64,000 nt of DNA from an uncultured Bacillota bacterium. Lineage in GTDB: Bacteria; Bacillota_I; Bacilli_A; RF39; UBA660. Positions 12,001-41,640 of the stretch are shown one piece after another. Location of the stretch: the NCBI GenBank assembly GCA_947165005.1, contig CAMUYN010000003.1, forward strand, positions 25,584 to 89,583. Reading direction: 5' to 3'. The first letter of the stretch is position 1; each line of letters starts with the position of its first letter. The notes beneath the pieces are model-generated. The model saw only the letters and a program-made list of their open reading frames with translations. It was not told the origin of the DNA and searched no databases. The translations under genes were made by a program, and so were the position numbers.

Positions 12001-15000
12001 CTGTCTCAACATTATATGTTGTTGGATTTTTTAATAAGTCTCTTTCTTCAGTAGTTATTCCGCTATAAGTAATATTATAAGTTATTGCTTCATAATTAGC
12101 AGTATATGTTCTATTACCTGAGCTTCCTTTAGATATTGTTACTTCTGTTGATGTTCCAGTTATTCCTGTCCCACTCCAACCAGTAAAATTATATCCTGGT
12201 TTTGATGGATTATTTAATGTAAATGTGGCCGTACTTCTCTTATATGAATTTGGATTTGTTTTACCAGGTTCAAGTGCTCCACCATCAAGATCATAAGTGA
12301 TTGAATAATCATTTTGATTTTCGTGCCATACAGCTGTATATGTCTTATTTCCTATACTTCCTTTTGGAATACTTACATTTGTTGATGTATTTCCATTTCC
12401 ATCATTCCATCCAAGGAAATCTTCTGAATCATTGCCATGTTCATCTTTTCTTGTACTTGGAATATTTAATGTAAATGTATCTGTCTCAACATTATATGTT
12501 GTTGGATTTTTTAATAAATTTCTTTCTTCAGTAGTTATTCCTTCATAAGATATGTTATATGTAATAGGGGTATAATGTGCTACATAGTTTCTTACTCCCG
12601 CACTACCTTTAGATATTGTTACTACTAGTGATGTTCCATCAATTTCTGTTCCACTCCATCCAGCAAATGCATAACCAGGTTTTGATGGATTATTTAATGT
12701 AAATGTGGCTGTACTTCTCTTATATGAACTTGGATTTGTCTTTCCAGGTTCAAGTGCTCCGCCATCAAGATCATATGTAATTAAATAGCTATCTTGGTTT
12801 TCGTGCCATTCAGCAGTATATGTTCTATTTCCTATACTTCCTTTTGGAATACTTACATTTATTGATATATTTCCATTTCCATCGTTCCATCCAAGAAAAT
12901 CTTCTAAATTATTACCATGTTCATCTTTTCTTGTACTTGGTTCATTTAATGTAATAGTTTCTGACTCAATATTATATGTTGTTGGATTATTTAATAAATT
13001 TCTTTCTTCAGTAGTTATTCCTTCATAAGTTATATTATATGTAATTGGGGTATAGTGAGCTACATAGTTTCTTACTCCTGCACTACCTTTAGATATTGTT
13101 ACTATTTCTTCTGTTCCAGTTATTCCTGTCCCACTCCATCCGGCAAATTCATATCCTTCTTTTGATGGATTATTTAATGTAAATGTCTCTGTGCTTCTCT
13201 TATATGAAGTTGGATTTGTCTTTCCAAGTTCAAGTGCTCCACCATCAAGATCATACGTGATTAAATAACTGTCTTGATTTTCTCCCCATACAGCAGTATA
13301 TGTTCTATCATCTATACTTCCTTTTTCAATTGTTACATTGATTGATGTATTTCCATTTCCATCATTCCATCCAAGGAAATCTAGTAAATTATTACCATGT
13401 TCATCTTTTCTTGGATCAGGATTATTTAACTTAAATGTATTTGTTTCAACATTATATGTAGTAGGATTATTTAATAAGTTTCTCTCTTCTTCTGTTATTT
13501 CATTATAAAGAATATTATAAGTATTAATTTCATAAGCAGCTGTTAGTGTTGCATCTTCGTCATTAAATGTAAATGTATTATTTAGGAATACTCCACCGCC
13601 AGTTTTATCATATCTTATAAAACTATAACCTCTTTTTACTGATTCTGCTATTTGTCTTATAGTTCCATAATCTTCTTCATATGTAACAACAGATGCATTA
13701 TCTAAATATGTTCCTCCATTTGGATCAATTGATAATGTAGATTTTTTTATCGCATAGCAAGCAGTATATTCTCTATCTCCAACACTACCTTTTTTAATTT
13801 GTAAATTTAATGTTTCTTCAGTTAAATCTGTTCCTACCCAACCGATAAATGTATATCCCTCTTTACTAGGATTATTCAATGTGAATTCATCACTTACAGT
13901 ATAAGTACTTGGATTATCTTCAGGTAAAGTACCACCATCTAAATTATACTCAATGTTATATGTATTAATTTTATACTTTGCATATAAAGTTAAATCTTCC
14001 TGTACATTTTCATCGTTATAACATGTTCCATTTGCTTCATAACATTTAAATGTATATCCCTTATAAGTAGGAGCATCAATTATATCGATAGCATTTCCTT
14101 CTTCAACTTCTTTTGTACCTATTATAATTTCTTCCCCAGTATTAGGATTTCTATCAATAAATGTTATTGTATATTTATTATTTTTAATTTTTCCAAATAA
14201 TACTATATCCTTAGTAACAGTATTATCAAAATTATATTTATTTGTATATTCTTTATCGGTATACCAACCATCAAAATCTTCTATTCCTGGATTAATATTT
14301 TCAATCTTTTCTAGCGAAGATACATATTCTTCTCTAAATATTTTATTATTTAAATAATAAGCAACATATTTATAGTCTTCTCCACTAGTAATAGCGGTAT
14401 TAATATAATTTCTTGCTTCATTAGTTTTTACTATATCTAAAACTAAACTAGCACTTGTTTTTTCATACGCACCCAATTCTTTATCTTCAATTGCTGTATA
14501 GAATAAATATTTTCCATCTTTCTTCCATCCTGGGTTTTTATTTTCATCAAACGAAAGACCATCTGGAATAATATCCTTTAATACAGTTAATGTACCTTTA
14601 ACTTCACCAGTATTTTTTATATTGATTTTATAATAAATAGATCCCTCAATTGTTTTTGCATTCTTAACAGATCTAACTACTTTAGGTTCTTCGTCATATT
14701 CAAACGTTTCTTTTTTGCCATTTACAATTAAATCTAATTTACTAATAGATTTTTTTATTTCTGCATTAAATGGTTCTACTTCTCTAACAACTATATTTAA
14801 TATTCTTCTATTTTCATCAGTTGTTTCTTCTGTATACCTAACTACTTGATATTTTTCTTCCTCAAGTTTTACTTCATATGTATCTACATCCCCTAAACTA
14901 AATGTATATTCACCATTTTCTTTTGTATAAGTTCTTTTTATCTCTTTATCATCCTTTGATAAACTAAGTTCAAGTCCTTTATACATAGTTCCAGTTTCAT

Positions 15001-15523
15001 CAAAAACTTTTCCTTCAACACTTCTTCCTGTTATTACTACAGGATCTACATTTATTTTTGATTTAGATTCATCTTCACTATTGATTTTAAATTCTGGAGT
15101 AATAGCCACACCATATGGAGCATTTTCTACTACAACAGTTATTACTGGATTATTCTTAGTAGTTGTTATTGTAATGTTTCTTCCATTATTGCTAACAACA
15201 GAATCTTTTATTTCTTTAAATCTTGCATATTTATTTTCACTATTAGTTAAACTTCCAGTTATTACTGCAACATCTTCACTTAATTTATTAATTTTTAATT
15301 TATATTTTATTTCATCATAGTTATTAGAAGAAACGCCGTCATCAACTCCATCTATAACAGAAGCATTTAATGATGTTGTTTTAGATAATACATTTTTTAT
15401 GTTTATTTTTTTAACAGAAGGATTTAGAATTGTAAATAATCCCGCAACAAAAACTAATAGCATTGCTATTATTAGTAAAGTAGTATATTTTTTTGTTTTG
15501 AGATTTCTTAGTTTATGATTCAT
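1..15523 (-). CDS. Giant (>5170 aa) secreted surface protein, 5' end at 15523, 3' end beyond window start; signal peptide, CnaB-like domain, >=12 Listeria-Bacteroides (Flg_new) repeats, LamG-like domain, two ALK-type glycine-rich domains, parallel beta-helix repeats
   Basis: ATG at 15523-15521 with GGAAGG RBS 9 nt upstream. N-terminus MNHKLRNLKTKKYTTLLIIAMLLVFVAGLF is a signal peptide. The frame has no stop through position 1: the ORF track shows no long minus-strand ORF with a stop in 1-15523, and I hand-translated the 5' kilobases, ~9480-9420, ~7620-7560, ~6300-6180 and the last 120 nt without meeting a stop. 480-bp tandem repeats between ~10500 and 13500 carry Flg_new motifs (e.g. TYNIEYNLDGGTL...EGYTFIGW). 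TGTYKLEVWGAQGG and YKLETWGAA glycine-rich modules lie at ~6650-5900 and ~4700-4300. N/S/T/G-rich beta-helix-like repeats fill 1-4200. Confidence 0.8.
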   Translation of the reverse strand, partial: MNHKLRNLKTKKYTTLLIIAMLLVFVAGLFTILNPSVKKINIKNVLSKTTSLNASVIDGVDDGVSSNNYDEIKYKLKINKLSEDVAVITGSLTNSENKYARFKEIKDSVVSNNGRNITITTTKNNPVITVVVENAPYGVAITPEFKINSEDESKSKINVDPVVITGRSVEGKVFDETGTMYKGLELSLSKDDKEIKRTYTKENGEYTFSLGDVDTYEVKLEEEKYQVVRYTEETTDENRRILNIVVREVEPFNAEIKKSISKLDLIVNGKKETFEYDEEPKVVRSVKNAKTIEGSIYYKINIKNTGEVKGTLTVLKDIIPDGLSFDENKNPGWKKDGKYLFYTAIEDKELGAYEKTSASLVLDIVKTNEARNYINTAITSGEDYKYVAYYLNNKIFREEYVSSLEKIENINPGIEDFDGWYTDKEYTNKYNFDNTVTKDIVLFGKIKNNKYTITFIDRNPNTGEEIIIGTKEVEEGNAIDIIDAPTYKGYTFKCYEANGTCYNDENVQEDLTLYAKYKINTYNIEYNLDGGTLPEDNPSTYTVSDEFTLNNPSKEGYTFIGWVGTDLTEETLNLQIKKGSVGDREYTACYAIKKSTLSIDPNGGTYLDNASVVTYEEDYGTIRQIAESVKRGYSFIRYDKTGGGVFLNNTFTFNDEDATLTAAYEINTYNILYNEITEEERNLLNNPTTYNVETNTFKLNNPDPRKDEHGNNLLDFLGWNDGNGNTSINVTIEKGSIDDRTYTAVWGENQDSYLITYDLDGGALELGKTNPTSYKRSTETFTLNNPSKEGYEFAGWSGTGITGTEEIVTISKGSAGVRNYVAHYTPITYNITYEGITTEERNLLNNPTTYNIESETITLNEPSTRKDEHGNNLEDFLGWNDGNGNISINVSIPKGSIGNRTYTAEWHENQDSYLITYDLDGGALEPGKTNPSSYKRSTATFTLNNPSKPGYAFAGWSGTEIDGTSLVVTISKGSAGVRNYVAHYTPITYNISYEGITTEERNLLKNPTTYNVETDTFTLNIPSTRKDEHGNDSEDFLGWNDGNGNTSTNVSIPKGSIGNKTYTAVWHENQNDYSITYDLDGGALEPGKTNPNSYKRSTATFTLNNPSKPGYNFTGWSGTGITGTSTEVTISKGSSGNRTYTANYEAITYNITYSGITTEERDLLKNPTTYNVETDTFTLNIPASRKDGQGLNLEDFAGWNDGNGNISINVSIPKGSIGNKTYTAEWHENQDSYPIAYDLDGGTLGEPNPSSYKRSTTTFTLNNPSKPGYTFAGWSGTGITGTSTTVTIPKGSAGVRNYVAHYTPITYNISYEGITTEERNLLKNPTTYNVETDTFTLNIPASRKDGQGLSIEDFAGWNDGNGNISINVSIPKGSIGDREYTAEWHDNEDVYNITYNLNDGVYEPGKTNPSTYMRKTETFTLNNPSKPGYNFTGWSGTGITGTSTEVTIPKGSSGNRSYVANFEKITYSINYSGLTQAEMVALNNPTTYDVETATFSISNPQREGYNFLGWSGTDIANKSTSVIVLKGSTGNRNYTANFEKIEYTISYTLNNGKVEQDNPTKYSVDSASITLNNPSKVGYNFIGWEGTDLVGNTNLVVTIPTGSTGHRSYTANYEPITYNLTYDYDGGSLDDGKTNPSTYNIETPDILLNNPSKEGYEFINYTIDNVIVTGIPTGSTGNKHLVAHYEISKYDVNFYNESALFTTEDVNWNSKATIPSSIPTKGHHIFLYWSEDGINEYDFNTLITEDKNLYAVYEEVISPMIEITPSLDNETNKTWVCGNSSTENCGVLVTLSSEHNEYELYYKIGDGALTLYTEPFKVYSNETITAVSKKSNIYSTDTNETIVNVDTISPTINNPGTGAASFNMTVSGTAQDAGSGVKKFTLYAREKSALIYDENLTYESPIFDGVKDHAENYDHTFYGVEQDTEYIVKIVAEDYVGNVSEREVEVRTNPYIARVVGKNGILWYTVDSDTKEIVVDQGREFLLFDSIQSAVNYCANVQCTIQTNPTIPVVNENIIVAADQDITIDLDGRGITSDASATFVNNGKLQIVDRNPRSDNTIGTVKNTVNKAIVNNGTFILGEGSSEVSDTFINPEMDRPIIEGKTAALEQNDEFHFYDGKLVADTLALINNGADAITQYSYNVIFITENYKNVAKLARVTDPQARIKSTYYAKLKDSGVDNAFDSSNSGTFEEEKEKMLSKIKQYGDYGFIYDAVNETIVNGNNSTSNTTAISYLKLDLTDEEEDKFLTFTTFADTYNSDSYGYISISETLSSTGTQIYRSTGNDINGNKIYKLTKGKAYYLYFGFVKGGGDINPIEIFKISNFNILGERQETSDFALLNDTNRYSFERQDDGSYKSTNPFLGGTYAHSYIIYDLRDQTEGFNILVNASISSLNNNDHGYVYVSNNENFLNYDSASSIKKFDMYGVVSNRTYTISLTPGELNYVHFCYYNYNGNHGGDDTFTINNVALTNAKGENILSQSTLLHNNNDTYYFNNIDYDLFTWKDSSSNHNNAILNGPILNSQSTGLLFDGNNDYGYVDTSNYNLNNYEESVYTEFSTTSTNNMVIYMGSSRERIVVGLSDGRIQVSNGVGSDAAWYNRPSNFNNGSKHSILTTYKEGNYEVYYDGTKLTKGGTWRITGATTNAYIGRAGSNGNYWNGTIYNIKVYNKEITPEEINNPDNIILNLDGSNSKIPTEASFISNNAGVANSTAHSYIMYDLTNVNEDKYLYVNATISSHSYNYGSVYVTDSTSVPSGTSGREIYVSGVKENQTGILRLQKNKVNYVHFLYTKSGSYNTESDKFFIKEIRYCNSLEDAYSINANNYSTISEIYFDNPVLNQEVDTIEILKQITLDSAIEVPEEKEVILDLNGFTLTSNKNDYVIKNNGNLKIIDGKFEENRKRNINYKTEQARLYNEAKNKYLADLTEYNEYAGLCENCEPSEEYIIDNSLRKEIPYSGHEETFNVGFTGTYKLEVWGAQGGSYSNSIYGGYGGYSVGTVELTAGDTLYINVGGAGKSVHGSNTTAQGGYNGGGNAVLYHGNGSQFDSGSGGGATHIATSQGILSELESDQSSILIVAGGGGGSSRWDYGEYGAGGSAGGYVGNNGGTTESNRYGTGGTQSSGGYYKYNPSLGKGSFGQGGQTESDISSRYLGGAGGGGYYGGGAAGTNYCTGGGGGSGYIGNQSLDNKAMYCYYCTEATDVNNDKDIFTISTKGSTEYIDSENCPNGFSSDPVSKCAKANDGYAKITFDITDEELEEMKKNLPKTYNVKTLPVFKDYLSEVDFDSSVDVDNIDIDSEVSYNNIVSEAVNGTITSTTSSILLNEEHATLNLSSGAINININSKYGIVNRGKLIIGEGAIINANNAGTIGIYNETNGDIVSSSGVINAIGNNSTGLYNRSNDPSISGIKVVTTPTDAKGIRNEAVADVTYTNINVTGAGEGFREYATGNTIISNSNISSTGNDSIYFTPQAFPLRFTINSSSLYGSVSLESSPRMVSINNSSLTTLYNSFGNVSINSSTLNYINNRGEAVINDSTLTGSGTIIFNEDGNYSRGGIEYVSKLLLKNSIVNSTATSNKDIVDNDYYMTVYNTRFNNVNGAKSTVFNNTKNYVTPYLNITGNTYIDSSFGTAINNNGVVTIGSDEKNVDTEYEFGYTGAQEVFTAPQTGTYKLETWGAAASDANGWSSGYKSIYRGGFGAYASGTITLNKGDKLYIHVGGHGSSGTYWNALRSYYGAYNGGGATTGYYNDWTVPGTGGGATDISLSSEDNTWYYDNGVVSSRRSTESYEQRIIVAGGGGSCYYTDNCYGGYQTTSTTLGYGDRNSGGGYYGGSSYTGGSSYVSSNLSNIIMKTGNEEMPDYSTSGLVKGNVGNGHAKITLLNGSSTVVSNTPTISSTNYGIVGSGRFNFYDGTISANTAINSDIENVPEGYDIYKSIDNSKEKIILVSNANSRPVADGEESYVAQINNSKYTTIQNAVDAANNGDEIDLLVDINQQNTINISDTKAVTIDYNGHIVKSYSDKYLFNNQGNLTITDSTNSLRKNSYYGDKYIYNEGTLTVSKLYIGNYDYSISILENNNGVVTLDKVKFDFGNDNNVSNKVAITNTESGTIIANESIFNLWYTNNMFNNKGTLTVKDSNVTSSAGKYFVYNFTSGTVTLDGNSYSVSGGIENYFLNSSGTATIKNMTTTFERIYNEGILTLESNTLPSGSLNSPGLLRIKSGTYSNSFTISGSGKIIDNTNNQYSLIIENGTINSKLNISATGITNIEGGTINVSNDIAINNSGSGIINLGIHDGNVDSKENTKPIINGKSYGIYTSNPALLVNFYDGIVSGQKAYNVSIDNVENGYSIHRDYDSVGDIESKYLTSEPVFRNITQGKSYTSVDELNTDLSNGTINNNDVIQALRNITITRSENPITIPSGLKITFDINNNIIDNNNNTMFIINGELDTIDSTNSNIVGKIDSTTGNIFVNNGTLNILSGTYVSEAGSTESEVVLNNSNLNISGGVFTKYYDKLGYRQTNSGTIVNNSGVAIITNGTFYSNSSFIESAYRRGTIDNADYIYSSSIFVNNSLGTLNVSGGTYDGIASRTWRDNDSSWRDYSTASKGELIYNYGTATISGIVSDNSHIGLNQGTLTLDDVTMENIINLNTGGTSGLHPNLINTGSLTISDSTFEIKASFVENNGGNISITNTTIDRTANGSGYRTDNDDLYGVKNSHLIRNKYNSNNDNSINISGSYLYNRGSGEVIENRGLLIIENSTIEAFNNAAINSYSSRVDVKKNSSIISDNGRAIYLSSSTFNLGESIEIDGAVSKTYPIIKGTTYGVYNSSSTINFYDGILMGKTDPTYGTITNLEVGYGRISGTSDDYKTNYLDKVYVIKNVTQSVGIEKKYYDLKSAFDEANSGDTLQMINDYNNLTIDEAAVVSNIVTFDLNGKTIRQSNDKLFVNNGELTIIDSSNGNTGEIIAISGTTAFDNNGTINLIDAKVSTNHGILLFKNNSNSTLVVKDEGIITSSTGSTLIDNSGTVDILNGAYLHNINAHVIINRNILNIVDLNNDNDQSTDSLFDAPWIHCENNGAANANASIRTVSGGTTNIYGGVYNNGQTYNSGTPTASKIVDNSGTTIIKNLDSYSYFVGENNGSLTIENSHFYNFEDEGIYSRYGTLNVKDTTFEITTTENHFDNFKIYSGYSTF

Positions 15524-16890: not shown

Positions 16891-17358
16891 CTAATATTCT
16901 ATTTTATCTTCTTTATCCACATATTCTTCAAATACTTTGATAGCTTCTTCTCTATTTAATCCTTTTAAATCTAATATATCTTTATCATTCATATCAGACT
17001 TTATAAAATCATAAATATAATCATCTCTAAATCCAATATTTTCAGCATCTTCTTTAGTATTTGCGTAATAAACTTTTTTTATATTAGCCCATATAATTGC
17101 GGACAAACACATTGGGCATGGATAACAAGATGTATATAATTCACATCCACTTAAATCATAAGAATTAATCCTCTTACATGCTTTTCTTATTGCTTCAATC
17201 TCTGCATGAGCAGTCGGATCATTATTCTTAATGACCATATTAATTCCCTTACCAATTATTTTTCCATCTTTAACAATACACGCTCCAAATGGGCCACCAT
17301 ATTTTTTATCAAAATTATCATTGGATAAATCTATTGCAATATCCATAAATTCATTCAT
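16891..17358 (-). CDS. guaD: Guanine deaminase / CMP-dCMP-type zinc deaminase
   Basis: GGPFGACIVKDG, HAEIEAIRKA and CYPCPMCLSAI zinc-binding motifs. 155 aa, close in length and motif order to Bacillus GuaD. Confidence 0.8.
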   Translation of the reverse strand: MNEFMDIAIDLSNDNFDKKYGGPFGACIVKDGKIIGKGINMVIKNNDPTAHAEIEAIRKACKRINSYDLSGCELYTSCYPCPMCLSAIIWANIKKVYYANTKEDAENIGFRDDYIYDFIKSDMNDKDILDLKGLNREEAIKVFEEYVDKEDKIEY

Positions 17359-18814: not shown

Positions 18815-19492
18815 CTAAATAGCACCTATTTTTTGTTTGTTCTTAATTCTTCTCCAGTTATATACTCCATATATATCATTTATAAGTAATAATACTGGAC
18901 ATAATAAAACTGGTATTAAATTACAATTTCCACTTATAACTGGAATACTCCATAACGTAATTAGGATAATATCATTAATAATAAATCCTATAAAACCATA
19001 TTCACTTCTTCTTGCTGTTAAATATGTTGCTATTATACTAGCTACTATACTAAATGTACTAACAAGTAGATTATTTGTATTAAATATTTTTAATAAATAA
19101 TAATATCCGGCAAACATAACTACTTGTGATAGTAATACTAATAGTAATTCTTTTTTAGTTATTTCTTTTATAATAACTGTATTAGTATTATCTTGATGTT
19201 TTAACCAGTTTATTAATCCTATTATCATCAATGGTAATGTACAACACATAGCGATAATTACTTCACCATAATATGAGTTACTATAAGATACATATGCATA
19301 AAAGAATGTACTTATTATTCCTATTATATAACAAGCATACTTACCTTTAGCTAAGAGTAATGCTGTCCAAAAATAAAGAAGTGTATACCCTAGATCTATC
19401 CATGTACCTTTAAATAAAAAAGTTAATACAAAAGCTGAAATAGTTCCAAGTATTAAAAATAATTTTTCAAAAATAGTCCAACCCTTAAACAT
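18815..19492 (-). CDS. pnuC: PnuC-family nicotinamide riboside / nucleoside transporter
   Basis: 225 aa, 7-8 predicted TM helices, Trp/Tyr-rich loops and the size typical of the PnuC family. Sits 12 nt downstream of the preceding ORF. Confidence 0.6.
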   Translation of the reverse strand: MFKGWTIFEKLFLILGTISAFVLTFLFKGTWIDLGYTLLYFWTALLLAKGKYACYIIGIISTFFYAYVSYSNSYYGEVIIAMCCTLPLMIIGLINWLKHQDNTNTVIIKEITKKELLLVLLSQVVMFAGYYYLLKIFNTNNLLVSTFSIVASIIATYLTARRSEYGFIGFIINDIILITLWSIPVISGNCNLIPVLLCPVLLLINDIYGVYNWRRIKNKQKIGAI

Positions 19493-20967: not shown

Positions 20968-22944
20968 CTAATCCTTACTTAATGAATTGTTTAAAATATC
21001 TTTTAACTCTGGATAATTATTTATATTTTTCAATATATTATTTGAGTCTTCTTTAGCCTTTAATAATATATCATAATCCCTTGTTAAATTAGCTATTTTA
21101 AAATTCATATCTCCACTTTGTCTTGTTCCAAATAAATCTCCTGATCCTCTTAACTTAAAGTCTTCTTCTGCTAATTTAAATCCATCTGTTGTCTCTTCCA
21201 TAATCTTTAATCTTTCAGTATCTCTATCTGATACTAAAATACAATAAGAATCTAAAGAATTTCTTCCTACTCTACCTCTAAGCTGATGTAAAGTAGCTAA
21301 TCCAAATTTATAAGCATCAAATATTACTATCATAGTAGCATTAGGTACATCTACCCCTACTTCTATAACAGTAGTACTAATTAATATATTTATTTCTTTA
21401 TTTTGGAACTTCTTCATTATATCATCTTTTTCTTTAGATGTCATCTTTCCATGTAATATACCTATACTTTGTTTTTTAAATGCTAAAGAAAAATTCTTAA
21501 GTAAAGTCTTAATATCTTCATCTTCATCTTCACTTTCTATAAGTGGAGAGACAATATACACTTGATGATCATTATCTAGTTCTCTTTTTACAGTATTAAG
21601 CATTTTCTTTAAGTCTTCTTCACTCTTAGTAATATTAATTGTCTTAACTGGTTTTCTACCATTTGGCATAGACTTAATAATAGATATATCCATATCTCCA
21701 TAAATAGTTAATGCATATGTTCTAGGTATTGGTGTAGCACTTAAATATAAGACATCTACCATCTTACCTTTATTTCTTAAATTACTTCTTTGATTAACCC
21801 CAAATCTATGTTGTTCATCTGTTATTATTAACCCTAAATTATTAAAATTAATATCATCTTGTAAAAGTGCATGAGTACCAATAATTATATCTATTTCTCC
21901 ATTAGCTAATTCTTCTTTTATTAATTCTTTTTCTTTTTTTGGAGTACTTCCTAATATCTCTTTAATATTTAAATTATAACCTTTAAATAATTTTTTCATA
22001 TTAAGATAATGTTGATGTGCAAGTATTTCTGTTGGTGCCATTAATGCACTTTGATATTTATCAAGTGCTAAAGCATACATAGAAATAAAAGCTACGATTG
22101 TTTTACCAGATCCAACATCTCCTTGAACTAATCTGTTCATTCTTCTAGGTGATTTTAAATCGGTAAAAATCTCATCTAATACTTTATTTTGATCCTCAGT
22201 TAATTCAAATGGTAAAGATGAAATAAATTTATTTATTTTATCTTTATCTATATTTCTACTTTGACCAAAATTATTAACAGAATTCTTATTAATAAGCTCA
22301 TTAATCTTTAGCATAAAAAGAAATAATTCTTCATATTTAAATCTTTCTAAAGATATATTTAATGATTTTACATCACTAGGATTAGTTATTATATTTAAAG
22401 CCTGTCTCTTATCTATAAAATTATATTTCTTTGATAATTCCTCAGGAATATAATTAACTAAATTACTTTTATTAATTGCTTCCGTAATATATTTTCTTAT
22501 ATTATTATTACTTAATCCCTTAACCAAGTGATATATAGGTGTTATTACCACTCTATTACCTAAATCAAATAACTTTATGTCTGATGCAGTAAATTTTCCC
22601 TTTTCATTATCATATTTACCAATCAATGTAACTATTTTAGAAGGTACTAAATTATTCTTCATGAATGCCCTATTAAATATAACTACATCTATATACTTAT
22701 TCTCTTCTTCATATAATGCTTTAAATCTAATTGCATTTTTAGATCTACCAAAATAACTAATAGTAGGAGTACTAACAATTGTTACACTAACAATAGCATG
22801 TTCATCATTTATATTAGTCTTTTTTAATTTCTCAAATCTATATGGATAATATGATAATAAATCATCTATAGCATAGATATTTAACTTATTTAATTTACTT
22901 ATAGTAGATGCCCCAATACCCTTTATACTAGATAGTTCATTCAT
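20968..22944 (-). CDS. recG: ATP-dependent DNA helicase RecG
   Basis: Walker A GSGKT, DEQHRFG (DEAH box) and HQLRGRVGR helicase motif VI. The ORF track starts at a TTG at 23031; the likely true start is the ATG at 22944 (MNELSSIKGIG...). Confidence 0.9.
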   Translation of the reverse strand: MNELSSIKGIGASTISKLNKLNIYAIDDLLSYYPYRFEKLKKTNINDEHAIVSVTIVSTPTISYFGRSKNAIRFKALYEEENKYIDVVIFNRAFMKNNLVPSKIVTLIGKYDNEKGKFTASDIKLFDLGNRVVITPIYHLVKGLSNNNIRKYITEAINKSNLVNYIPEELSKKYNFIDKRQALNIITNPSDVKSLNISLERFKYEELFLFMLKINELINKNSVNNFGQSRNIDKDKINKFISSLPFELTEDQNKVLDEIFTDLKSPRRMNRLVQGDVGSGKTIVAFISMYALALDKYQSALMAPTEILAHQHYLNMKKLFKGYNLNIKEILGSTPKKEKELIKEELANGEIDIIIGTHALLQDDINFNNLGLIITDEQHRFGVNQRSNLRNKGKMVDVLYLSATPIPRTYALTIYGDMDISIIKSMPNGRKPVKTINITKSEEDLKKMLNTVKRELDNDHQVYIVSPLIESEDEDEDIKTLLKNFSLAFKKQSIGILHGKMTSKEKDDIMKKFQNKEINILISTTVIEVGVDVPNATMIVIFDAYKFGLATLHQLRGRVGRNSLDSYCILVSDRDTERLKIMEETTDGFKLAEEDFKLRGSGDLFGTRQSGDMNFKIANLTRDYDILLKAKEDSNNILKNINNYPELKDILNNSLSKD

Positions 22945-23027
22945 AAAGTAATCCTTTCTTAAAATAATTATAACATATTTTACAAATTCCCTTGACAAAA
23001 AGAAAAAAATAAGTAATATATATGGTA

Positions 23028-23092
23028 CCAATTCCCAAATGGCGAATTGGCTGCTAGTATCACACTAGCCAACCCCTTTTTATTCTTTTTTA
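23028..23092 (+). ncRNA. Candidate small RNA (~65 nt, two hairpins) with near-consensus sigma-A promoter and intrinsic terminator
   Basis: TTGACA at 22993-22998, 17-nt spacer, TATATA. Hairpin 1 is CCAAUUC-9nt-GAAUUGG. Hairpin 2 is UUGGCUGCUAGU-AUCAC-ACUAGCCAA followed by CCCCUUUUUAUUCUUUUUU. No ORF. Confidence 0.3.
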
Positions 23093-23183
23093 TGAAGCAG
23101 TTCTTCAGGGGGGCTGCTTCTTTTTTTAATAATAAAAGTAGACATATTGTCTACTTTATTTTTTTATGCTAATATATATTTAA

Positions 23184-23252: not shown

Positions 23253-23290
23253 TATTTCTACTATCAAAAAAAGACTCAATAGAGTCTTTT

Positions 23291-25657
23291 TTATTTTAAA
23301 TATTCTTTTGCTTGTTTTAATAAATCACTTAAAGTATATATTGGTAATGAATAGTAAGTACCATTATTAGATACTATTACTTTATCTTTTTCAAGTTCAG
23401 TAAGTCCTCTTATATGACCTACTTTATTATAATTCTTATCTAATATATAAGCATCAGTTAAATTTCCAATATAAGTTCTTCCATATTTATCAGTACCATA
23501 GTAATGATCAGGTCTAAGAATATTCTCCACCATATTAAGTAACTTCTTTTCTTTAACGTTATATACTGCTAAGGAATTATCTACATAGCTAACAAATAAT
23601 AAATCTTTATTTTTACTATAGAACATACCAGATACTAAATTCTTATTCATAATATTTATTTTTTCTTTTAATTCATTAGCATCTTTTTCAGAAATAGTAT
23701 CAGTACTTACATACCCATATTCTTTTTTTACTTCTTTCATATCTTTACTAGTATTAGTAGTATAGTAAATAACTCTATTTTGATTTTCTGGTATTAATAA
23801 GTATCCTGATTCATTTTGAACTACTTTAGAATAATTAGTTAAATTAAATTGATATTGTCCTTTATAAATAACATTTTGTTTAGTATCCATACTTGCATAA
23901 TTAGCAGTACCATCTTTATTAATTGTTAAATATAAATTTCTATTAGTATATGAATATACTTCAAGTATATCACTAGATGTATCAAAATTATGTTTAACAT
24001 CTCCATTTGAAGCATCAAGTATATCTAATTTATTGCCATGAACTATAGCTATATCATTAACCCCTTCAGCATATGATCTAGTTATTATTTTTCCCCAAAT
24101 ACCATTTTCAGTTCTAGACCAATTTAAGTTATTATCAATATAGTTATAAGATGCTGCTAGTAAATTAAAATCAGATCCCATAGTTCTATTAAATAACATA
24201 TAAACATTATTATCTTTAGTAAACATATTACTAATATAACCAGCATTAAACTTAATACTGTTTATTTCTTTAGCACTTTCAGTATCTATGACATGTACTG
24301 TTATATATTGCTCTTTATCTACACTAAATTGATTTTCAATAGTACTTGCAAACAAATATTTACCATCTTCTGTATAAAATGATTGTCTTACTATATCATT
24401 ATCATATTTAATAGTACCTATTGTTTTATCATTAAGCAAATCATATATAGTTAAATTTTTATTATCTGCATAAGTTAAATATTTAGTTTTAAAATGGCCT
24501 CTTACAAATTGATAAGATGAATCTTCTTTCTTAATTTCTTTTAATTTATCACCATTTTTAGTAACAGTAATAATTACATTACCATCTTTATTTATATAAG
24601 AGAAATAATCTTCTCCGATAAAACTAAAATCATTTTCATCAAAAGTAAAACCATATATATCATTATAAGTTTTAATCTTTTTAAATGTTTTTGCATTCCA
24701 TAAAGTTAATTCCTCTGATTCATCATAAGTAGCTAAATAATTATTATCATAACTAACCTTTATAAAGTCTACTACACCCTTAGTTTTAATTTCATCATTA
24801 GCTTTAAAACTAGATCCTACATCATATACTCCAAGTGCTTCACTTAAAGCATATTCTGCATCAGTAGTATATGGCATTTTAACTTCATCAAACTTAGTTA
24901 ATGATTCATAAGCATATTTAATTGCATCATATCTACTATCATTTTTTAATGATGATATAGATTTTTCAGATAAAGTTGTTGCTTGATGATTTTTAAGTAT
25001 CTTTTGTTGACTATTAATTTTAATTAACATGATTGAAGAATAAAGTGCAAATAATAAGAATGCTCCTGCTGCTATTGTAGCAATAGTTAGTTTTCTTTTT
25101 TGTTCTTGCATTTTATGTCTTTGTTTTAAATCATCATAATCAAGTCCATACATTGGAGCTATTAATCTTAGTTTTTCACTCTTAATCTTACTTAATACTT
25201 CTTTTTTAGTTTCTCCTCTAACATCTGCAGCTAGTGGTTCTACCAAAGTCTTTCCGTCATCATCAACTAATACTTCTTCAGGGAAAGAATCACCTGGTTC
25301 ACCTTCAATTAATACACAGAAGATATTCTTTCTTCCTCTTAATTTTTTAAAAGTTTCTATTTCTTTTTTACACCACATAGAATCTTTTAATCTTGGAGAA
25401 CAAATAACTATTAAGTATTTAGTATTATGAAGTGCATCTACTATTGGATCTTCTAGATTACTAGAAAGTGGTAATTCATCTTGGTCTCTAAATACTCTTT
25501 TAATACTTCTTCCTTCAATACCTAATTGTTCTTTAATATTTTTAGGCAGTTCATAACTTTCTAATATCTTATGTAAGTTTTCTGCAACAAACTTATCTAA
25601 GTCACAATGTCTATAACTTATAAAAGCATCATATTTATATTCTTTTTTCTTTTCCAT
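23291..25657 (-). CDS. TIR-domain protein with one transmembrane helix and a C-terminal ~550-aa beta-propeller-like repeat domain
   Basis: N-terminal YDAFISYRHCD...VICSPRLKDSMWCKKEIE is a canonical TIR signature including the putative catalytic Glu. A hydrophobic segment LTIATIAAGAFLLFALYSSIMLI follows at ~aa 190-215. The C-terminal region has repeated Y/W/D/N-rich beta-strand patterns. A hairpin terminator lies at 23236-23275. Confidence 0.75.
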   Translation of the reverse strand: MEKKKEYKYDAFISYRHCDLDKFVAENLHKILESYELPKNIKEQLGIEGRSIKRVFRDQDELPLSSNLEDPIVDALHNTKYLIVICSPRLKDSMWCKKEIETFKKLRGRKNIFCVLIEGEPGDSFPEEVLVDDDGKTLVEPLAADVRGETKKEVLSKIKSEKLRLIAPMYGLDYDDLKQRHKMQEQKRKLTIATIAAGAFLLFALYSSIMLIKINSQQKILKNHQATTLSEKSISSLKNDSRYDAIKYAYESLTKFDEVKMPYTTDAEYALSEALGVYDVGSSFKANDEIKTKGVVDFIKVSYDNNYLATYDESEELTLWNAKTFKKIKTYNDIYGFTFDENDFSFIGEDYFSYINKDGNVIITVTKNGDKLKEIKKEDSSYQFVRGHFKTKYLTYADNKNLTIYDLLNDKTIGTIKYDNDIVRQSFYTEDGKYLFASTIENQFSVDKEQYITVHVIDTESAKEINSIKFNAGYISNMFTKDNNVYMLFNRTMGSDFNLLAASYNYIDNNLNWSRTENGIWGKIITRSYAEGVNDIAIVHGNKLDILDASNGDVKHNFDTSSDILEVYSYTNRNLYLTINKDGTANYASMDTKQNVIYKGQYQFNLTNYSKVVQNESGYLLIPENQNRVIYYTTNTSKDMKEVKKEYGYVSTDTISEKDANELKEKINIMNKNLVSGMFYSKNKDLLFVSYVDNSLAVYNVKEKKLLNMVENILRPDHYYGTDKYGRTYIGNLTDAYILDKNYNKVGHIRGLTELEKDKVIVSNNGTYYSLPIYTLSDLLKQAKEYLK

Positions 25658-25666
25658 AAAACACCT

Positions 25667-26242
25667 CTATATTATTAATCCATCTCCGTCATAAAGAAGA
25701 ATTAAATCATCTTTATTAACTGTTTCTAATAAATCTTTCTTTTTATTAGAATGTGGTACTATTTCTTTATCTATTATATTAAGTGCAGTAAAATCAGTCA
25801 TATTTACAAAATTATCTTCATATATTGCATCTAAACTAATTGTAGATCCAAGTATTTGAGATCCTGCACTTGATCCAATATATAATTTACCTTTATTAAT
25901 AAAATCTTTTATTACTTCACCAAAATTATTTTTTCTTACCATATCAAGAAGATAAATAGTATTACCACCCATCATATAAATAATATCATATTTATCTATA
26001 TCTAACGGATTACCTATCTTATACTCAGTAATATTTTCTTCTTTAATACCTAAATCTAATATAGTTTTATATTCCTCGTTAACCCAAGCTTTATTATTAT
26101 CTTTTTCTCCATCTACTGCAGTAGTAATATATAAAACTTTTTTATTAGATAATTCTTCTTTTGATATTATCTCATAAAATTTATTTTTAAAATCTTCATT
26201 TCTAATTCCACATGAAGTTAAAACAATATTATTCATAAACAC
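25667..26242 (-). CDS. Peptidase S51 (dipeptidase E / cyanophycinase-like) family protein
   Basis: VLYITTA, YMMGGNT..LL and YIGSSAGS motifs in S51 order; 191 aa. Confidence 0.6.
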   Translation of the reverse strand: MFMNNIVLTSCGIRNEDFKNKFYEIISKEELSNKKVLYITTAVDGEKDNNKAWVNEEYKTILDLGIKEENITEYKIGNPLDIDKYDIIYMMGGNTIYLLDMVRKNNFGEVIKDFINKGKLYIGSSAGSQILGSTISLDAIYEDNFVNMTDFTALNIIDKEIVPHSNKKKDLLETVNKDDLILLYDGDGLII

Positions 26243-26254
26243 CTCTCTTTATAA

Positions 26255-26788
26255 TTAGTTATTTAAAGATTTTAAATATTCTTCAATAACTAATATCATA
26301 TCTGGAGATAATATTTCATTTCTTTTGTTATTAGGCATATTATTTCTAATAATATCTATCGATTCATTTAATGGGAACGATTCTAACTTAAAATGATGAT
26401 TCTTTTCTGATTCAGTTAATTTAATTTTACTCATATCAGGTTCTTTAGTAGTTTCTATTAAGTAATAATTTATTTCATTTTTTCTATTTTTTCCTTTTTC
26501 AGGCCAATCTCTATTCATAAAAGTAACTTTCATAAGTATATCTTTTACTTCAGAATCATCTATTTCTATTCCGGTTTCTTCCATTATTTCTCTTTTTAGA
26601 CATTCATCAATAGTTTCACCTTCATCAAGATGTCCACCAGGAAATTCAAATAACCCATCTTCATTAGCAATTAATATATTATTAGTATTTGTATTAACTA
26701 TTAGTGCTTTTGCTCTTATAACAGTTTCTGTTATATCTTCGTTAGTTAAATTATCATTGTTATGAATTATTTCTTTCATATAAATCAC
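26255..26788 (-). CDS. NUDIX hydrolase
   Basis: Nudix box GGHLDEGETIDECLKREIMEETG. Confidence 0.8.
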   Translation of the reverse strand: MIYMKEIIHNNDNLTNEDITETVIRAKALIVNTNTNNILIANEDGLFEFPGGHLDEGETIDECLKREIMEETGIEIDDSEVKDILMKVTFMNRDWPEKGKNRKNEINYYLIETTKEPDMSKIKLTESEKNHHFKLESFPLNESIDIIRNNMPNNKRNEILSPDMILVIEEYLKSLNN

Positions 26789-26817
26789 CTATATAATTAT
26801 ATCATAAAATCACTTGA

Positions 26818-29800
26818 TTATTTATCAAGTGATTTATAATATTCAAATCTTTCTTTAGAAGTTTCTAAATTAGCTTCAAGTAATTCTTTAGCATGATCTA
26901 AATTAACTGCGGATAACATTTTATATCTAGTTTCATTACTTAAGAATTCATCATATAAAGTAAAGTCTGGTTCTTTAAAATCTAAATTAAATTCTTTAGT
27001 TTTTGCATTATATCTAAATAATGGGAAATATCCACATTTTACTGCTAATTCTTCTTCTTTCATAGAATTACCCATACCACCTTTTATACCATGAGAAATA
27101 CAAGGAGCATACGCAATTATTAAAGATGGTCCATCATGATTCATTGCTTCATTAATAGCTTTAATAGCTTGATTCATGTTAGCTCCCATACTAATTTCTG
27201 CTACATATACATTTGGATAAGTCATCATCATTCTAGCTAAATCTTTCTTAGAAGTATTTTTACCAATACTATTAAATTTAGCTACTGCACCTTCTCTAGT
27301 TGATTTAGAAGATTGGCCTCCAGTATTTGAATATACTTCAGTATCAAGAACCAATATATTAACATTTTCGTTAGAACTCATTACATGATCTAATCCACCA
27401 AATCCTATATCATAACTCCATCCATCTCCACCAATTATCCATACACTCTTATTAAGAATATAATTCTTAATTGGTTCAAGTTCAGGAATTTCATCATAAT
27501 TAAGATTATCCATAACTACTTTAGATGTCTTATAATCATTTGATTTTTCAAGGTAAGCCTCAATTAATTTTTTATTATCTTCTGATACTTTATCTTTATA
27601 ATTATTCATTATATTAATAATTCTATTTTTATATAGTTCTTCACTTAATCTCATTCCATATCCAAATTCTGCATTATCTTCGAATAATGAATTAGACCAA
27701 GATACATTGTATGGAGAACTTGGCATAGATCCACCATATATAGATGAACATCCAGTAGCATTAGCTATTATTAAACCTTCTCCTACTATTTGAGTTAGCA
27801 TCTTAATATATGGAGTTTCTCCGCACCCAGCGCAAGCACCAGAATATTTAAATAATGGTTTATTAAATGCTAATCCTTTTACTATTGTTTCTGGATATAA
27901 ATGTTTATTAGTAACACCACTTATTTTGTTATTAACTCTATCTATATTCTTATCTCCCATAGTTATAGCTTTAGTAGGACAAACCGAAGTACATACACCG
28001 CATCCAGTACAATCATCATAACTAATTTCTAAAGCAAATTTCATATCTGATCCTGGTACATCTTTGTATATAATTCCGGGATTCTTTTCTACTTCCTCCA
28101 TAGTCATTAATTTAGGTCTAATAACTGCATGAGGGCATGCCATTACGCACGAGTTACATGTTGTGCATTTTTCTGTGTTCCAACATGGAAGCATCTCTGC
28201 GATATTTCTCTTTTCTAATTTAGATGTATTTACTTCAAAAGTACCATCATCATGTTTAATAAAATCAGATACTTTTAATTCGTCACCTTTTAAGTGAGAA
28301 ATGTATTCTAATACTCCATTTAATCCTTTTTCTTCTACTTCTAAATTAATCCATTCTGGATTAATTATTGCTTCTTTAATTGATGATTCAACTGAATCAA
28401 GAGCACTTATATTTTTACTTACTATATCTTCTGATTTCTTACCAAATTTATTAGTAATACTATCCTTTAACATATCATATGCTTTATCTTTAGGTAATAC
28501 TTTAGTAATTAGTATTATTGCATATTCCATAATAGCACTAATCTTATTAGGTATACCATTATCTGCTGCTATTTTAGATGCATCTATTAAGAATGTTTTA
28601 ACTTCATTTTTAGCTAAATAATATTTAGTTTTATTATCTAATTCTTCTATATCTTTAGAAGTATTTAATATAAATATTCCATTCTTTCTAATAGATTTAA
28701 CTATATCATAAATACCCAAATAGCTTTCTTTAGTACATACTACTATATGAGCTTTATCTATATAATAACTAGATCTTATTTCTTCTTTACCAATTCTAAG
28801 CTGAGATATAGTTACTCCACCACTCTTTTTAGAATCATATTTATTATAAAGCTGAATATATCCATTAGTATTATCACCGATTAAAGTTGCAAGATCTTTA
28901 GTACCAGATACCATTCCATCTGATCCAAATCCATATACCATTAATTCAATTGCTTTACTATTTATCTTTATTTCTTTTCTATCTAAACTTTTATTAGTTA
29001 CATCATCAATTATGCCTATAGTAAATGAATCAATTGGTTCTTTACTATCTAAATTATCAAATACAGAAAGTATATCTCCTGGAGTTGTATCTTTAGAAGA
29101 TAATCCATATCTTCCACCATATACTTTTACTTTTAATTTAGATTTAGATATAGCATCAACTACATCTAGATATAAACTTTCTCTAGATCCAGCTTCTTTT
29201 GCCCTATCCAGTACAGCAATCTTCTTAACAGTACAAGGTATAGTATTAATAAAATGTTTAATACTAAATGGTCTAAATAATCTAACTATTATCAAACCCG
29301 TATCTTCCATATTATCAACAGTTTCTTTAATAGTATCACATACTGATCCCATTGCAACAATTAACTTAGATGGATTCTTACTTCCATAATAATCAAATAA
29401 ATGATAATTAGTATTAAATTTTTCATTGATAAGTTTCATATAACCATTAACTATATCTGGCATCTTATCATAGTATTTATTTCTTGCTTCTATATTTTGA
29501 AAATATACATCATCATTTTGAGTAGTACCCATTATTTTTTTATTAGCCAAACTACTATTTTTTCTAAACTCATCTATTAAACTAAAATCTACTAATTCTT
29601 TTACTTCTTCTAAATCAAGAACATCTATTTTATTTAATTCATGACTAGTTCTAAAGCCATCATAAAAATTAACAAAAGGAATTCTTCCTTTTAAAGTACT
29701 TAAATATGAAATAAGTGTCATATACATAACATCTTGTACATTAACTGATGATAAAATTGAATATCCAGTTCCTTTAACTGCATATATATCTGAATGATCT

Positions 29801-30168
29801 CCAAATATACTAAGAGCATGAGTAGATACTGTTCTACTTGCAACATTTATAACACTAGGAAGTAATTCTCCTGCTATTTTATACATATTTGGAATCATTA
29901 ATAAAAGCCCTTGAGACGCAGTAAATGTTGATGCTAATGATCCTGTTTGAAGTAATCCATGTATTGCTCCTATTGCGCCTGCTTCACTTTGCATTTCAAC
30001 AACTTTTACTCTTTCATTAAATAAGTTTAACTTTTCTTTGTTACTCCATTCCTCTATTTTTTCTGCACCTGGAGAAGCTGGAGTAATAGGATATAAACTA
30101 ACTGCATCAGAAAACATATATGCAATATGTGCACAAGCAGTATTACCATCCATTATTATTTTTTTCAT
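26818..30168 (-). CDS. nifJ: Pyruvate:ferredoxin (flavodoxin) oxidoreductase
   Basis: 1116 aa, two CxxCxxCxxxCP ferredoxin motifs, TPP-binding GDG...N motif, canonical PFOR domain order. Confidence 0.95.
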   Translation of the reverse strand: MKKIIMDGNTACAHIAYMFSDAVSLYPITPASPGAEKIEEWSNKEKLNLFNERVKVVEMQSEAGAIGAIHGLLQTGSLASTFTASQGLLLMIPNMYKIAGELLPSVINVASRTVSTHALSIFGDHSDIYAVKGTGYSILSSVNVQDVMYMTLISYLSTLKGRIPFVNFYDGFRTSHELNKIDVLDLEEVKELVDFSLIDEFRKNSSLANKKIMGTTQNDDVYFQNIEARNKYYDKMPDIVNGYMKLINEKFNTNYHLFDYYGSKNPSKLIVAMGSVCDTIKETVDNMEDTGLIIVRLFRPFSIKHFINTIPCTVKKIAVLDRAKEAGSRESLYLDVVDAISKSKLKVKVYGGRYGLSSKDTTPGDILSVFDNLDSKEPIDSFTIGIIDDVTNKSLDRKEIKINSKAIELMVYGFGSDGMVSGTKDLATLIGDNTNGYIQLYNKYDSKKSGGVTISQLRIGKEEIRSSYYIDKAHIVVCTKESYLGIYDIVKSIRKNGIFILNTSKDIEELDNKTKYYLAKNEVKTFLIDASKIAADNGIPNKISAIMEYAIILITKVLPKDKAYDMLKDSITNKFGKKSEDIVSKNISALDSVESSIKEAIINPEWINLEVEEKGLNGVLEYISHLKGDELKVSDFIKHDDGTFEVNTSKLEKRNIAEMLPCWNTEKCTTCNSCVMACPHAVIRPKLMTMEEVEKNPGIIYKDVPGSDMKFALEISYDDCTGCGVCTSVCPTKAITMGDKNIDRVNNKISGVTNKHLYPETIVKGLAFNKPLFKYSGACAGCGETPYIKMLTQIVGEGLIIANATGCSSIYGGSMPSSPYNVSWSNSLFEDNAEFGYGMRLSEELYKNRIINIMNNYKDKVSEDNKKLIEAYLEKSNDYKTSKVVMDNLNYDEIPELEPIKNYILNKSVWIIGGDGWSYDIGFGGLDHVMSSNENVNILVLDTEVYSNTGGQSSKSTREGAVAKFNSIGKNTSKKDLARMMMTYPNVYVAEISMGANMNQAIKAINEAMNHDGPSLIIAYAPCISHGIKGGMGNSMKEEELAVKCGYFPLFRYNAKTKEFNLDFKEPDFTLYDEFLSNETRYKMLSAVNLDHAKELLEANLETSKERFEYYKSLDK

Positions 30169-41419: not shown

Positions 41420-41640
41420 TTCCTCCTTAAACAAAAAAAGTTCCTATAATATAAGGACGAATTACCGCGGTACCACCTTATTTCATAGAAACTATGCACT
41501 CTAATTATAACGGAATTACCGATTAAATTCAGAATATGTAATTCATTCTTAAAAATACACTAGTTTTCACCAACCACTAGTTCTCTAATAATATATTTTA
41601 AAAACTACTAATTATTCATCAACATTTAATTACATTCTAA
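41420..41640 (-). promoter_or_regulatory. T-box riboswitch leader (Tyr specifier UAC) with promoter, upstream of the tyrS paralog
   Basis: -10 TTATAAT at rc 41640-41646. Stem I contains AGAGA and GGUGAAA-like elements; specifier loop GAAUUACAUA. Conserved T-box sequence AAUUAGAGUGCAUAG...AAGGUGGUACCGCGG; terminator/antiterminator and U-tract before GGAGG-ATG. Confidence 0.8.

Follow-up and report, generated by a model that had tools for sequence, protein, structure and literature searches.

A TIR-transmembrane-WD40 propeller protein of an uncultured Bacillota bacterium belongs to a large uncharacterized family of predicted membrane proteins

Introduction

Does a bacterial TIR-domain protein with a transmembrane (TM) helix and a propeller-like C-terminal region act together with the genes beside it, or on its own? 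The question is raised by a stretch of 64,000 nt from an uncultured Bacillota bacterium (GTDB lineage Bacteria; Bacillota_I; Bacilli_A; RF39; UBA660; GenBank assembly GCA_947165005.1, contig CAMUYN010000003.1, positions 25,584 to 89,583), hereafter the window, which has a G+C content of approximately 26%. Genes for a NUDIX hydrolase and an S51 peptidase lie immediately upstream of the TIR gene, and all genes around it are on the minus strand. The original prediction, made from the sequence, was that the three genes form an NAD-linked defense or signaling module. After comparing the locus with its relatives, we conclude that its main interest is the protein family and not the operon. We propose, with about an even chance of being right, that the TIR protein is a stand-alone single-pass membrane receptor-effector of a large uncharacterized Firmicutes family.

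Results

Architecture and topology of the TIR protein

The gene and the parts of its product are listed below by window coordinates.

23291..25657, minus strand: gene of the TIR-TM-WD40 propeller protein, 788 aa (open reading frame [ORF], Pfam domains, homologs, AlphaFold2 [AF2] model)
25148..25633, minus strand: TIR domain, residues 9-170, predicted to be cytoplasmic
25361..25375, minus strand: motif W95-C96-K97-K98-E99, with the candidate catalytic Glu E99 and a Cys three residues before it (alignment to TIR structures)
25019..25090, minus strand: single TM helix, approximately residues 190-213, N-in/C-out (Kyte-Doolittle, Lys plus Arg bias, AF2 helix)
24821..25018, minus strand: juxtamembrane stalk, residues 214-279, predicted to be extracytoplasmic (AF2 secondary structure)
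23342..24820, minus strand: WD40-type beta-propeller region, residues 280-772, predicted to be extracytoplasmic (AF2, Foldseek, profile matches)

The ORFs, the Pfam matches and the AF2 model agreed with the predicted succession of TIR domain, TM segment and propeller in one 788-aa protein. The N-terminal domain matched the Pfam profiles TIR_2 (39.1 bits, cut-off 28) and ThsB_TIR (28.5 bits, cut-off 21.2), and both the match above a curated cut-off and the flavodoxin-like fold place it in the TIR superfamily. The full-length AF2 model, built on 25 homologs, had a mean predicted local distance difference test score of 87.6. In this model the TIR fold occupied residues 9-170, a continuous helix (residues 174-238) spanned the predicted membrane segment, two stalk helices followed (residues 242-253 and 265-275), and approximately 43 beta strands lay at residues 280-772. 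The TIR domain is a canonical one, closest in structure to the NADases TIR-1 and SARM1, which were its best structural matches.

The hydrophobic segment at approximately residues 190-213 gave the only peak of the Kyte-Doolittle profile (2.07) in the 788 residues, and a single peak was also found in 85 of the 89 relatives. No signal sequence is present at the N-terminus. Lys and Arg were more frequent in the flank of the TM helix on the TIR side than in the other flank in all 89 relatives (mean 6.6 vs. 2.5), and because of this excess the TIR domain is predicted to be cytoplasmic and the propeller to be outside the cell, as had been supposed from the window sequence. Residues 174-279 were filled by the TM helix and short helices, with no NTPase profile match. 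One apparent sign of export was rejected: the ectodomain contains 0 Cys in 573 residues here, but members from Lachnospiraceae contain 5 to 19.

The C-terminal region, described initially as propeller-like, could be assigned to the WD40 type by the AF2 model, by Foldseek and by profiles. Partial Pfam matches to WD40 and beta-propeller families covered residues 277-507 and 671-710, and propeller profile matches included THOC3, WDR5 and WDR61 (E of approximately 3e-5). Foldseek against the PDB retrieved WD40 propellers only (E down to 7e-17), among them the tandem propellers of Apaf-1 and Gemin5 and the eight-bladed propellers of ODA16 and Tako8 (TMt 0.66-0.75). As modeled, the region may have roughly 10 to 11 blades, arranged either as eight plus approximately three or as two propellers. 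The stalk carries a conserved motif, MPYT...EY.L.E.LG.Y, with columns that were invariant in the 25-sequence alignment. Five of its residues (A245, P262, T264, L271 and Y278) were at least 95% conserved across both the Bacilli-type and the Lachnospiraceae-type relatives.

A catalytic-type motif in the TIR domain

In HMMER comparisons with solved structures, 'DSMWCKKEIETF' of the window protein aligned with 'DSKWCLMELAEI' of flax L6/L7 and with 'SEWCKYEL' of Toll-like receptor (TLR) 2. The catalytic residue of TIR NADases is a Glu four residues after a Trp (SARM1 E642, the Glu of plant TIRs, AbTir E208). E99 stands four residues after W95 in an SxWCxxE motif and matches the Glu of 'WCLMEL' in L6/L7, so that the window protein has the conserved Glu of the alpha-C helix that characterizes NAD+-cleaving TIR domains. 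W95, C96 and E99 were invariant in the 25-sequence alignment, and across 89 relatives that span two bacterial classes C96 and E99 reached a conservation of at least 95%. The Glu that had been noted at the position catalytic in NADases was thus aligned and conserved, and from this we infer that E99 is the candidate catalytic residue.

A large family with a constant TIR domain and a diversifying propeller

A homology search with the TIR protein returned more than 3,378 matches. The best 120 homologs listed were nearly all full-length (783-825 aa, with one of 693 aa), shared 54-93% identity with the window protein, and came mostly from gut and rumen metagenomes; those with a name were labeled 'Bacilli bacterium'. 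When each GTDB species was represented by one genome, relatives were encoded in at least 457 species genomes. Identity was 48-86% for members from metagenome-assembled genomes (MAGs) labeled Bacilli; members from Lachnospiraceae, Acetatifactor, Wujia, Blautia and Clostridium sp. CAG:510 shared 29-34% over the full length. With a profile restricted to the TIR domain, 2,308 representatives of 50%-identity clusters were matched at E <= 1e-30; in all of the best 150 of these the TIR domain was N-terminal, and most were 760-1,060 aa long, the few short ones probably being fragments. A cultured carrier is Butyrivibrio fibrisolvens D1, with a member of 814 aa and matching architecture (WAA20_RS20255) on the 243-kb replicon pNP243, annotated merely as a TIR-domain protein; this was the sole plasmid or chromid copy of the family. 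None of the phage records searched encoded a relative.

Conservation differed strongly between the two sides of the predicted membrane. Bacilli-type relatives shared 83% identity with the window protein in the TIR domain, 64% in the stalk and 48% in the propeller, and the corresponding values for Lachnospiraceae-type relatives were 61%, 35% and 21%. Nearly all positions conserved at 95% or more in the 89 relatives were within the TIR domain, which carries the family-specific motifs YDAFISYRH, CSPR..S.WCKKEIETF and EPLAADVRG. The same trend was found among tandem paralogs (two or three copies in some Lachnospiraceae), which were 57-80% identical in the TIR domain and 24-37% in the propeller. 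If the predicted topology is correct, a constant domain inside and a diversifying domain outside is what one would expect of a receptor family.

A conserved TIR domain may also be explained by docking: it would bind a conserved cytoplasmic partner with no enzymatic step, as in TLR/MyD88, and link it to an envelope-associated scaffold propeller of TolB or BamB type. The top PDB sequence matches of the domain include the TIRs of TLR6, TLR2 and TLR1, and the extreme conservation of the whole TIR surface, EPLAADVRG included, fits multiple protein interfaces. The catalytic-type motif, with its invariant Glu, Trp and Cys, and the structural matches to NADases argue otherwise, as does the failure to find a conserved partner gene adjacent to the TIR gene. 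We regard docking as an unlikely function.

Full-text literature searches brought up no paper on a TIR-TM-WD40 family, in agreement with the earlier view that this fusion is uncharacterized, and NCBIfam has no family name for either the TIR protein or the NUDIX protein.

Matches on proteobacterial plasmids share the TIR region alone with the window protein. The one that was examined, on plasmid pK101b of Sinorhizobium sp. K101 (locus L081, 5566-8322), has an N-terminal extension and a TIR region (34% identical to residues 2-209 of the window protein) fused to TPR repeats, with no propeller. The TIR subtype has therefore been reused with another repeat domain.

Neighboring genes vary among close relatives

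In the direction of transcription, the genes on the minus strand are BipA/TypA, a 287-aa ORF, PFOR, NUDIX, S51, the TIR protein, RecG, a 61-aa ORF, a 348-aa ORF and PnuC. The features relevant to the transcription unit are the following.

26818..30168, minus strand: PFOR gene
26801..26828, minus strand: promoter-like site TTGATA-16 nt-TATGAT in the 3' end of the PFOR gene, just upstream of NUDIX (consensus scan)
26255..26788, minus strand: ORF of the NUDIX hydrolase, likely ATG at 26779 (Pfam NUDIX, 53 bits)
25667..26242, minus strand: ORF of the S51 (PepE-like) peptidase, likely ATG at 26236 (Pfam Peptidase_S51, 88 bits)
23267..23292, minus strand: hairpin plus T-run, likely an intrinsic terminator, overlapping the TIR stop codon (terminator scan and sequence)
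20968..23031, minus strand: RecG gene
18815..19492, minus strand: gene of PnuC, an NMN transporter (Pfam, 108 bits)

The spacers of 9-12 nt given originally hold for the ORF coordinates (9 and 12 nt), but the likely ATG starts give 9 and 18 nt. Both starts are preceded by AGGTG-type ribosome-binding sites (AGAGGTG for S51). A hairpin equivalent to the one at the TIR stop codon was present after the TIR stop in locus L084 and in other close relatives. The promoter-like site has 10 of 12 consensus matches, and such sites were not enriched over shuffled sequence. Since the terminator scan found no terminator after PFOR, read-through from that gene is also possible. Because of the tight spacing, the ribosome-binding sites and the terminator after the TIR stop, the NUDIX, S51 and TIR genes probably share one transcript in the source genome. 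The supposed cotranscription therefore fits this genome, but the set of three genes was not conserved among relatives.

Relatives at 63-93% identity kept the PFOR-...-TIR-RecG frame, and the slot before the TIR gene varied. It contains NUDIX and S51 in the window, NUDIX alone in L083 (70% identical to the window NUDIX), a different gene pair plus S51 in L001 (94% identical to the window S51, no NUDIX), and nothing in L003, L084 and L085, in which the TIR gene follows PFOR by 29-40 nt. In L084 the distance is 29 nt, and the gap contains just a ribosome-binding site. An S51 ortholog was absent in L003, L083 and L084 and a NUDIX ortholog in L001, L003 and L084. The locus of the closest relative (L082, 93% identity) ends at a contig edge. 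In distant relatives the TIR gene was found in unrelated contexts and S51 was never beside it. No PnuC homolog was found in any related locus. The transporter gene, placed originally at approximately 3 kb, is real, but RecG and two other ORFs separate it from the TIR gene, at a distance of 3.8 kb; we rejected a link to the TIR gene as coincidence.

These observations bear on the proposal that TIR, NUDIX and S51 are one NAD-linked defense or signaling module, with NUDIX as the enzyme that breaks down the TIR product and PnuC as the source of NAD precursor. The tight packing of the three genes with ribosome-binding sites, the promoter-like site upstream and the terminator after the TIR gene are consistent with it; NUDIX genes of other subfamilies adjoin the TIR gene in five other loci (L005, L007, L008, L010 and L016), and Nudix domains have been discussed as acting on ADP-ribose or NAD+ in conflict systems (PMC7159879). 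The slot variability in close relatives argues against it: each of the two genes is missing in some of the relatives that have the same frame (L001, L003, L083, L084 and L085), so that neither a conserved TIR-NUDIX-S51 operon nor a three-gene module was supported. The NUDIX protein matched no NCBIfam equivalog, ADP-ribose pyrophosphatase included; its matches were at the level of the Nudix box, which was also its sole PADLOC match. The proposed ADP-ribose or cyclic ADP-ribose hydrolase function thus has no counterpart among ADP-ribose-specific families. Judged by gene content across the relatives, the slot is variable and its NUDIX and S51 genes are dispensable passengers, not a conserved module. 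The synteny goes far toward refuting the modular explanation, which we consider highly improbable.

Between the TIR gene and recG, at 23005-23135 of the plus strand (core 23026-23076), approximately 110 nt were near-identical in seven relatives, the TIR proteins of which were just 63-93% identical. This plus-strand element is antisense to the flanking genes and has two invariant hairpins and a terminator hairpin, with four covarying base pairs, followed by a U-run. Rfam gave no match (best E 0.35). The element is a candidate unannotated small RNA.

Recurrent hydrolase genes beside the TIR gene

Hydrolase genes recurred beside the TIR gene. In Bacilli-type loci (n = 23), NUDIX, HD or HAD genes made up 12 of 44 adjacent genes and 18 of 260 genes at least three positions away (odds ratio 5; Fisher P = 2.5e-4, in a test that ignores kinship); family assignments were verified by Pfam on representatives. 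The stand-alone HD neighbor is homologous to the HD region found in the multifunctional CCA-adding enzyme. It often abuts the TIR gene, at anything from overlap to 84 nt: the two lie within approximately 10 nt in L086, L088, L022 and L057 and 21-84 nt apart in L012, L014 and L019. Bacilli-type loci also hold genes of nucleotide housekeeping (ITPase, UDG, PNP and ADP-ribosylglycohydrolase). In L087 (8841-9605 and neighbors), the TIR gene is followed on one strand by PNP_UDP_1, UDG, ADP-ribosylglycohydrolase, a UDG-like gene, a 79-aa ORF and NUDIX.

In 44 Lachnospiraceae-type loci, in several wider contexts, an NrnA-like DHH/DHHA1 gene was found directly upstream of the TIR gene. Its product, a protein of approximately 510 aa that is well conserved in Lachnospiraceae and related Clostridia, combines the NrnA-like DHH/DHHA1 core with a conserved C-terminal extension of approximately 190 aa that has no Pfam match (L024 and 44 other loci; L089-L168). 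In the reverse test, with 74 informative metagenomic DHH loci, the TIR gene was directly downstream in 20, elsewhere in 3, and absent within 5 kb in 51. The DHH gene usually lay within a housekeeping array (PurH-like - DHH - GlnS). Since most DHH loci had no TIR gene nearby, the link was weakened, and we downgraded DHH from a dedicated TIR partner to a frequent neighbor.

In seven loci of Lachnospiraceae MAGs (L021, L031, L033, L034, L044, L046 and L055), an NrtR-type regulator, with a Nudix domain and an NrtR winged helix (Pfam, 68 bits), was directly upstream of a DHH-TIR unit with one to three TIR genes (a single one in L055). NrtR proteins are regulators of NAD metabolism that respond to ADP-ribose. 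This synteny is confined to one lineage and therefore counts as one event.

The hydrolase neighbors allow for a TIR product other than that of simple NAD+ cleavage, such as a 2',3'-cyclic nucleotide monophosphate (2',3'-cNMP) or a cyclic ADP-ribose isomer, turned over by HD proteins in Bacilli and by DHH proteins in Lachnospiraceae. In the alignment, C96 lies where L7 has the Cys that, according to Yu et al. 2022, is reportedly needed for 2',3'-cNMP synthetase activity; the HD neighbor matches the HD region of the CCA enzyme and abuts the TIR gene, and DHH is directly upstream in the 44 loci. Set against this are the DHH loci that have no TIR gene (51 of 74) and the housekeeping array in which DHH lies; HD, NUDIX and HAD genes, moreover, are common throughout these regions. 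Such a product with such a turnover seems to us very unlikely. In the stand-alone receptor-effector that we propose, NUDIX, HD, HAD and NrnA-like DHH proteins may dispose of TIR products, which would be a suggestive tie to nucleotide chemistry, and none is a dedicated partner.

Defense or physiology

A defense role, the other half of the original prediction, was not borne out by PADLOC, by the neighbors or by the phage records. PADLOC matched the TIR protein weakly and partially to the SAVED-TIR and PDC-S66 models, the SAVED_TIR match covering the TIR part alone (residues 10-125). For the NUDIX protein it matched the Nudix box alone (candidate model PDC-S07). Ten neighbors gave no defense-system match, only a partial match of a deaminase gene to a dCTPase model. 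This gene (16891-17358, minus strand; cytidine/dCMP deaminase family, Pfam 99 bits) is probably tadA-like and housekeeping rather than defensive. The neighbors of the TIR gene were housekeeping genes, with no defense or mobile-element genes nearby. Synteny was stable at the genus level and within Lachnospiraceae, and the gene was retained in contigs of MAGs labeled Bacilli or Tenericutes. The stable housekeeping context fits physiological signaling better than a mobile defense island.

The protein may nevertheless be a single-gene abortive-infection system, in which the propeller senses adsorbing phages or a damaged envelope and NAD+ is then depleted by the TIR domain. Most characterized bacterial TIR proteins are NAD+-consuming defense components; single-gene TIR systems and TIR-plus-TM systems protect Escherichia coli (PMC11350192); the sensor domain is variable, with tandem paralog arrays that have divergent propellers; and the PADLOC similarities, weak as they are, point the same way. 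The contrary evidence is the stable chromosomal position among housekeeping genes with synteny across genus-level divergence, the retention in the Bacilli and Tenericutes contigs, the lack of nearby defense or mobile-element genes and of phage copies (with one copy on a plasmid or chromid), and a TIR domain unusually conserved between two classes (61% vs. 21% for the propeller). These features of the context are atypical of defense islands, and a chromosomally fixed single-gene abortive-infection system may be compatible with them. We consider a role in abortive infection doubtful.

Other features of the window

Two features lie apart from the TIR locus. One ORF of more than 5,174 aa (2-15523, minus strand) runs off the start of the window; it has an N-terminal hydrophobic anchor, is rich in Asn, Thr, Gly and Ser, and presumably encodes a giant surface protein. 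A T-box leader (41450-41631, minus strand; Rfam RF00230, 99.2 bits, gathering score 93) was found upstream of a 405-aa ORF (40200-41417).

Discussion

The window protein shares traits with several known TIR systems. With SARM1/TIR-1 and the plant TIRs (L6/L7, RPS4, RUN1 and RPP1) it has in common the motifs of the FxSYR.. strand and of the S-x-W-C-x-x-E helix, with the Glu aligned. The activity of SARM1 and the plant TIRs depends on sensor-driven oligomerization, and we propose this mechanism for the window protein. SARM1 and the plant proteins, however, are cytosolic, with an ARM-SAM or NB-ARC-LRR sensor in the same compartment as the TIR domain, whereas a TM helix separates the TIR domain of the window protein from a WD40 region predicted to be outside. 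The window protein also has no NTPase or SAM domain, unlike those proteins.

Toll-like and IL-1 receptors have the same single-pass layout, with an extracellular repeat sensor, one TM helix, and a TIR domain in the cytoplasm. In the window protein the order is inverted: the TIR domain is N-terminal, the anchor is of type II, and a signal peptide is lacking; the ectodomain is a WD40 propeller and not LRR or Ig. The order TIR-TM-WD40, with neither LRR nor signal peptide, excludes it from the Toll-like receptor family, and the resemblance is one of analogy, not orthology. We know of no MyD88-like adaptor in these bacteria.

Among bacterial systems, the defining features of Thoeris are lacking. 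Its ThsB proteins, unlike the window protein, are of small size and cytosolic. A ThsA-like gene (SIR2-SLOG, Macro or TM-SLOG) was not found adjacent to the TIR gene, in the window or in the related loci; the neighbors are S51, NUDIX, PFOR and RecG, and the NCBIfam model of Thoeris type III scored 11.8 bits (cut-off 220). Those of CBASS, TIR-STING and TIR-SAVED are lacking as well, as the protein has no STING or SAVED domain and no cyclase gene is nearby, and so are those of TIR-STAND or NLR-like proteins, as no NTPase profile matched between the TIR domain and the repeats. Bacterial conflict proteins in which a TIR domain is joined to superstructure-forming repeats such as WD40 have been described (PMC7159879), and some TIR systems of E. 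coli carry a TM segment (PMC11350192). The family differs from TIR-STAND and TIR-repeat proteins in having no NTPase, in repeats that are predicted to be outside the membrane, and in its housekeeping synteny in place of defense islands.

As a stand-alone receptor-effector, the protein would work in three steps. The propeller would recognize a ligand or an envelope event outside the cell; recognition would alter the oligomeric state and bring the cytoplasmic TIR domains together; and the clustered TIR domains would cleave NAD+ or make an NAD-derived nucleotide. SARM1, plant TNLs, AbTir and TIR-STING are active only once their TIR domains have been brought together, and clustering is proposed here by analogy to SARM1, plant TNL resistosomes, AbTir filaments and TIR-STING. 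By the same analogy we infer NADase activity and ligand recognition for the window protein. Several points weigh against this proposal. Topology and oligomerization are predictions, and no downstream receptor for the putative nucleotide signal was identified. The hydrolase enrichment, in which kinship is ignored, comes from genomes that in any case carry long arrays of small hydrolase genes. The TIR domains of TLR1, TLR2 and TLR6, classically seen as adaptors, hold an equivalent Glu, and for this reason the motif is a requirement for catalysis rather than proof of it.

The proposal can be taken further, more tentatively, to a vertically inherited receptor, encoded among housekeeping genes, that is the counterpart in logic of Toll-like receptors, with a diversifying extracellular propeller and a near-invariant TIR domain in the cytoplasm that makes a non-lethal NAD-derived second messenger. 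We consider this possible but less than probable. The ligand of such a receptor may be environmental, host-derived or part of the cell envelope. If this is true, the family represents outside-in TIR signaling in commensal Firmicutes and not abortive defense.

To our knowledge, the characterized bacterial TIR proteins are all either cytosolic anti-phage sensors and effectors or secreted virulence factors. If the TIR domain of this family is active, an extracytoplasmic sensor would directly control TIR chemistry in a large family of gut and rumen Firmicutes. The family would then offer a tractable system for learning whether NAD-derived nucleotides serve as ordinary transmembrane messengers in bacteria, and a prokaryotic analog of the receptor-TM-TIR layout of animal innate immunity.

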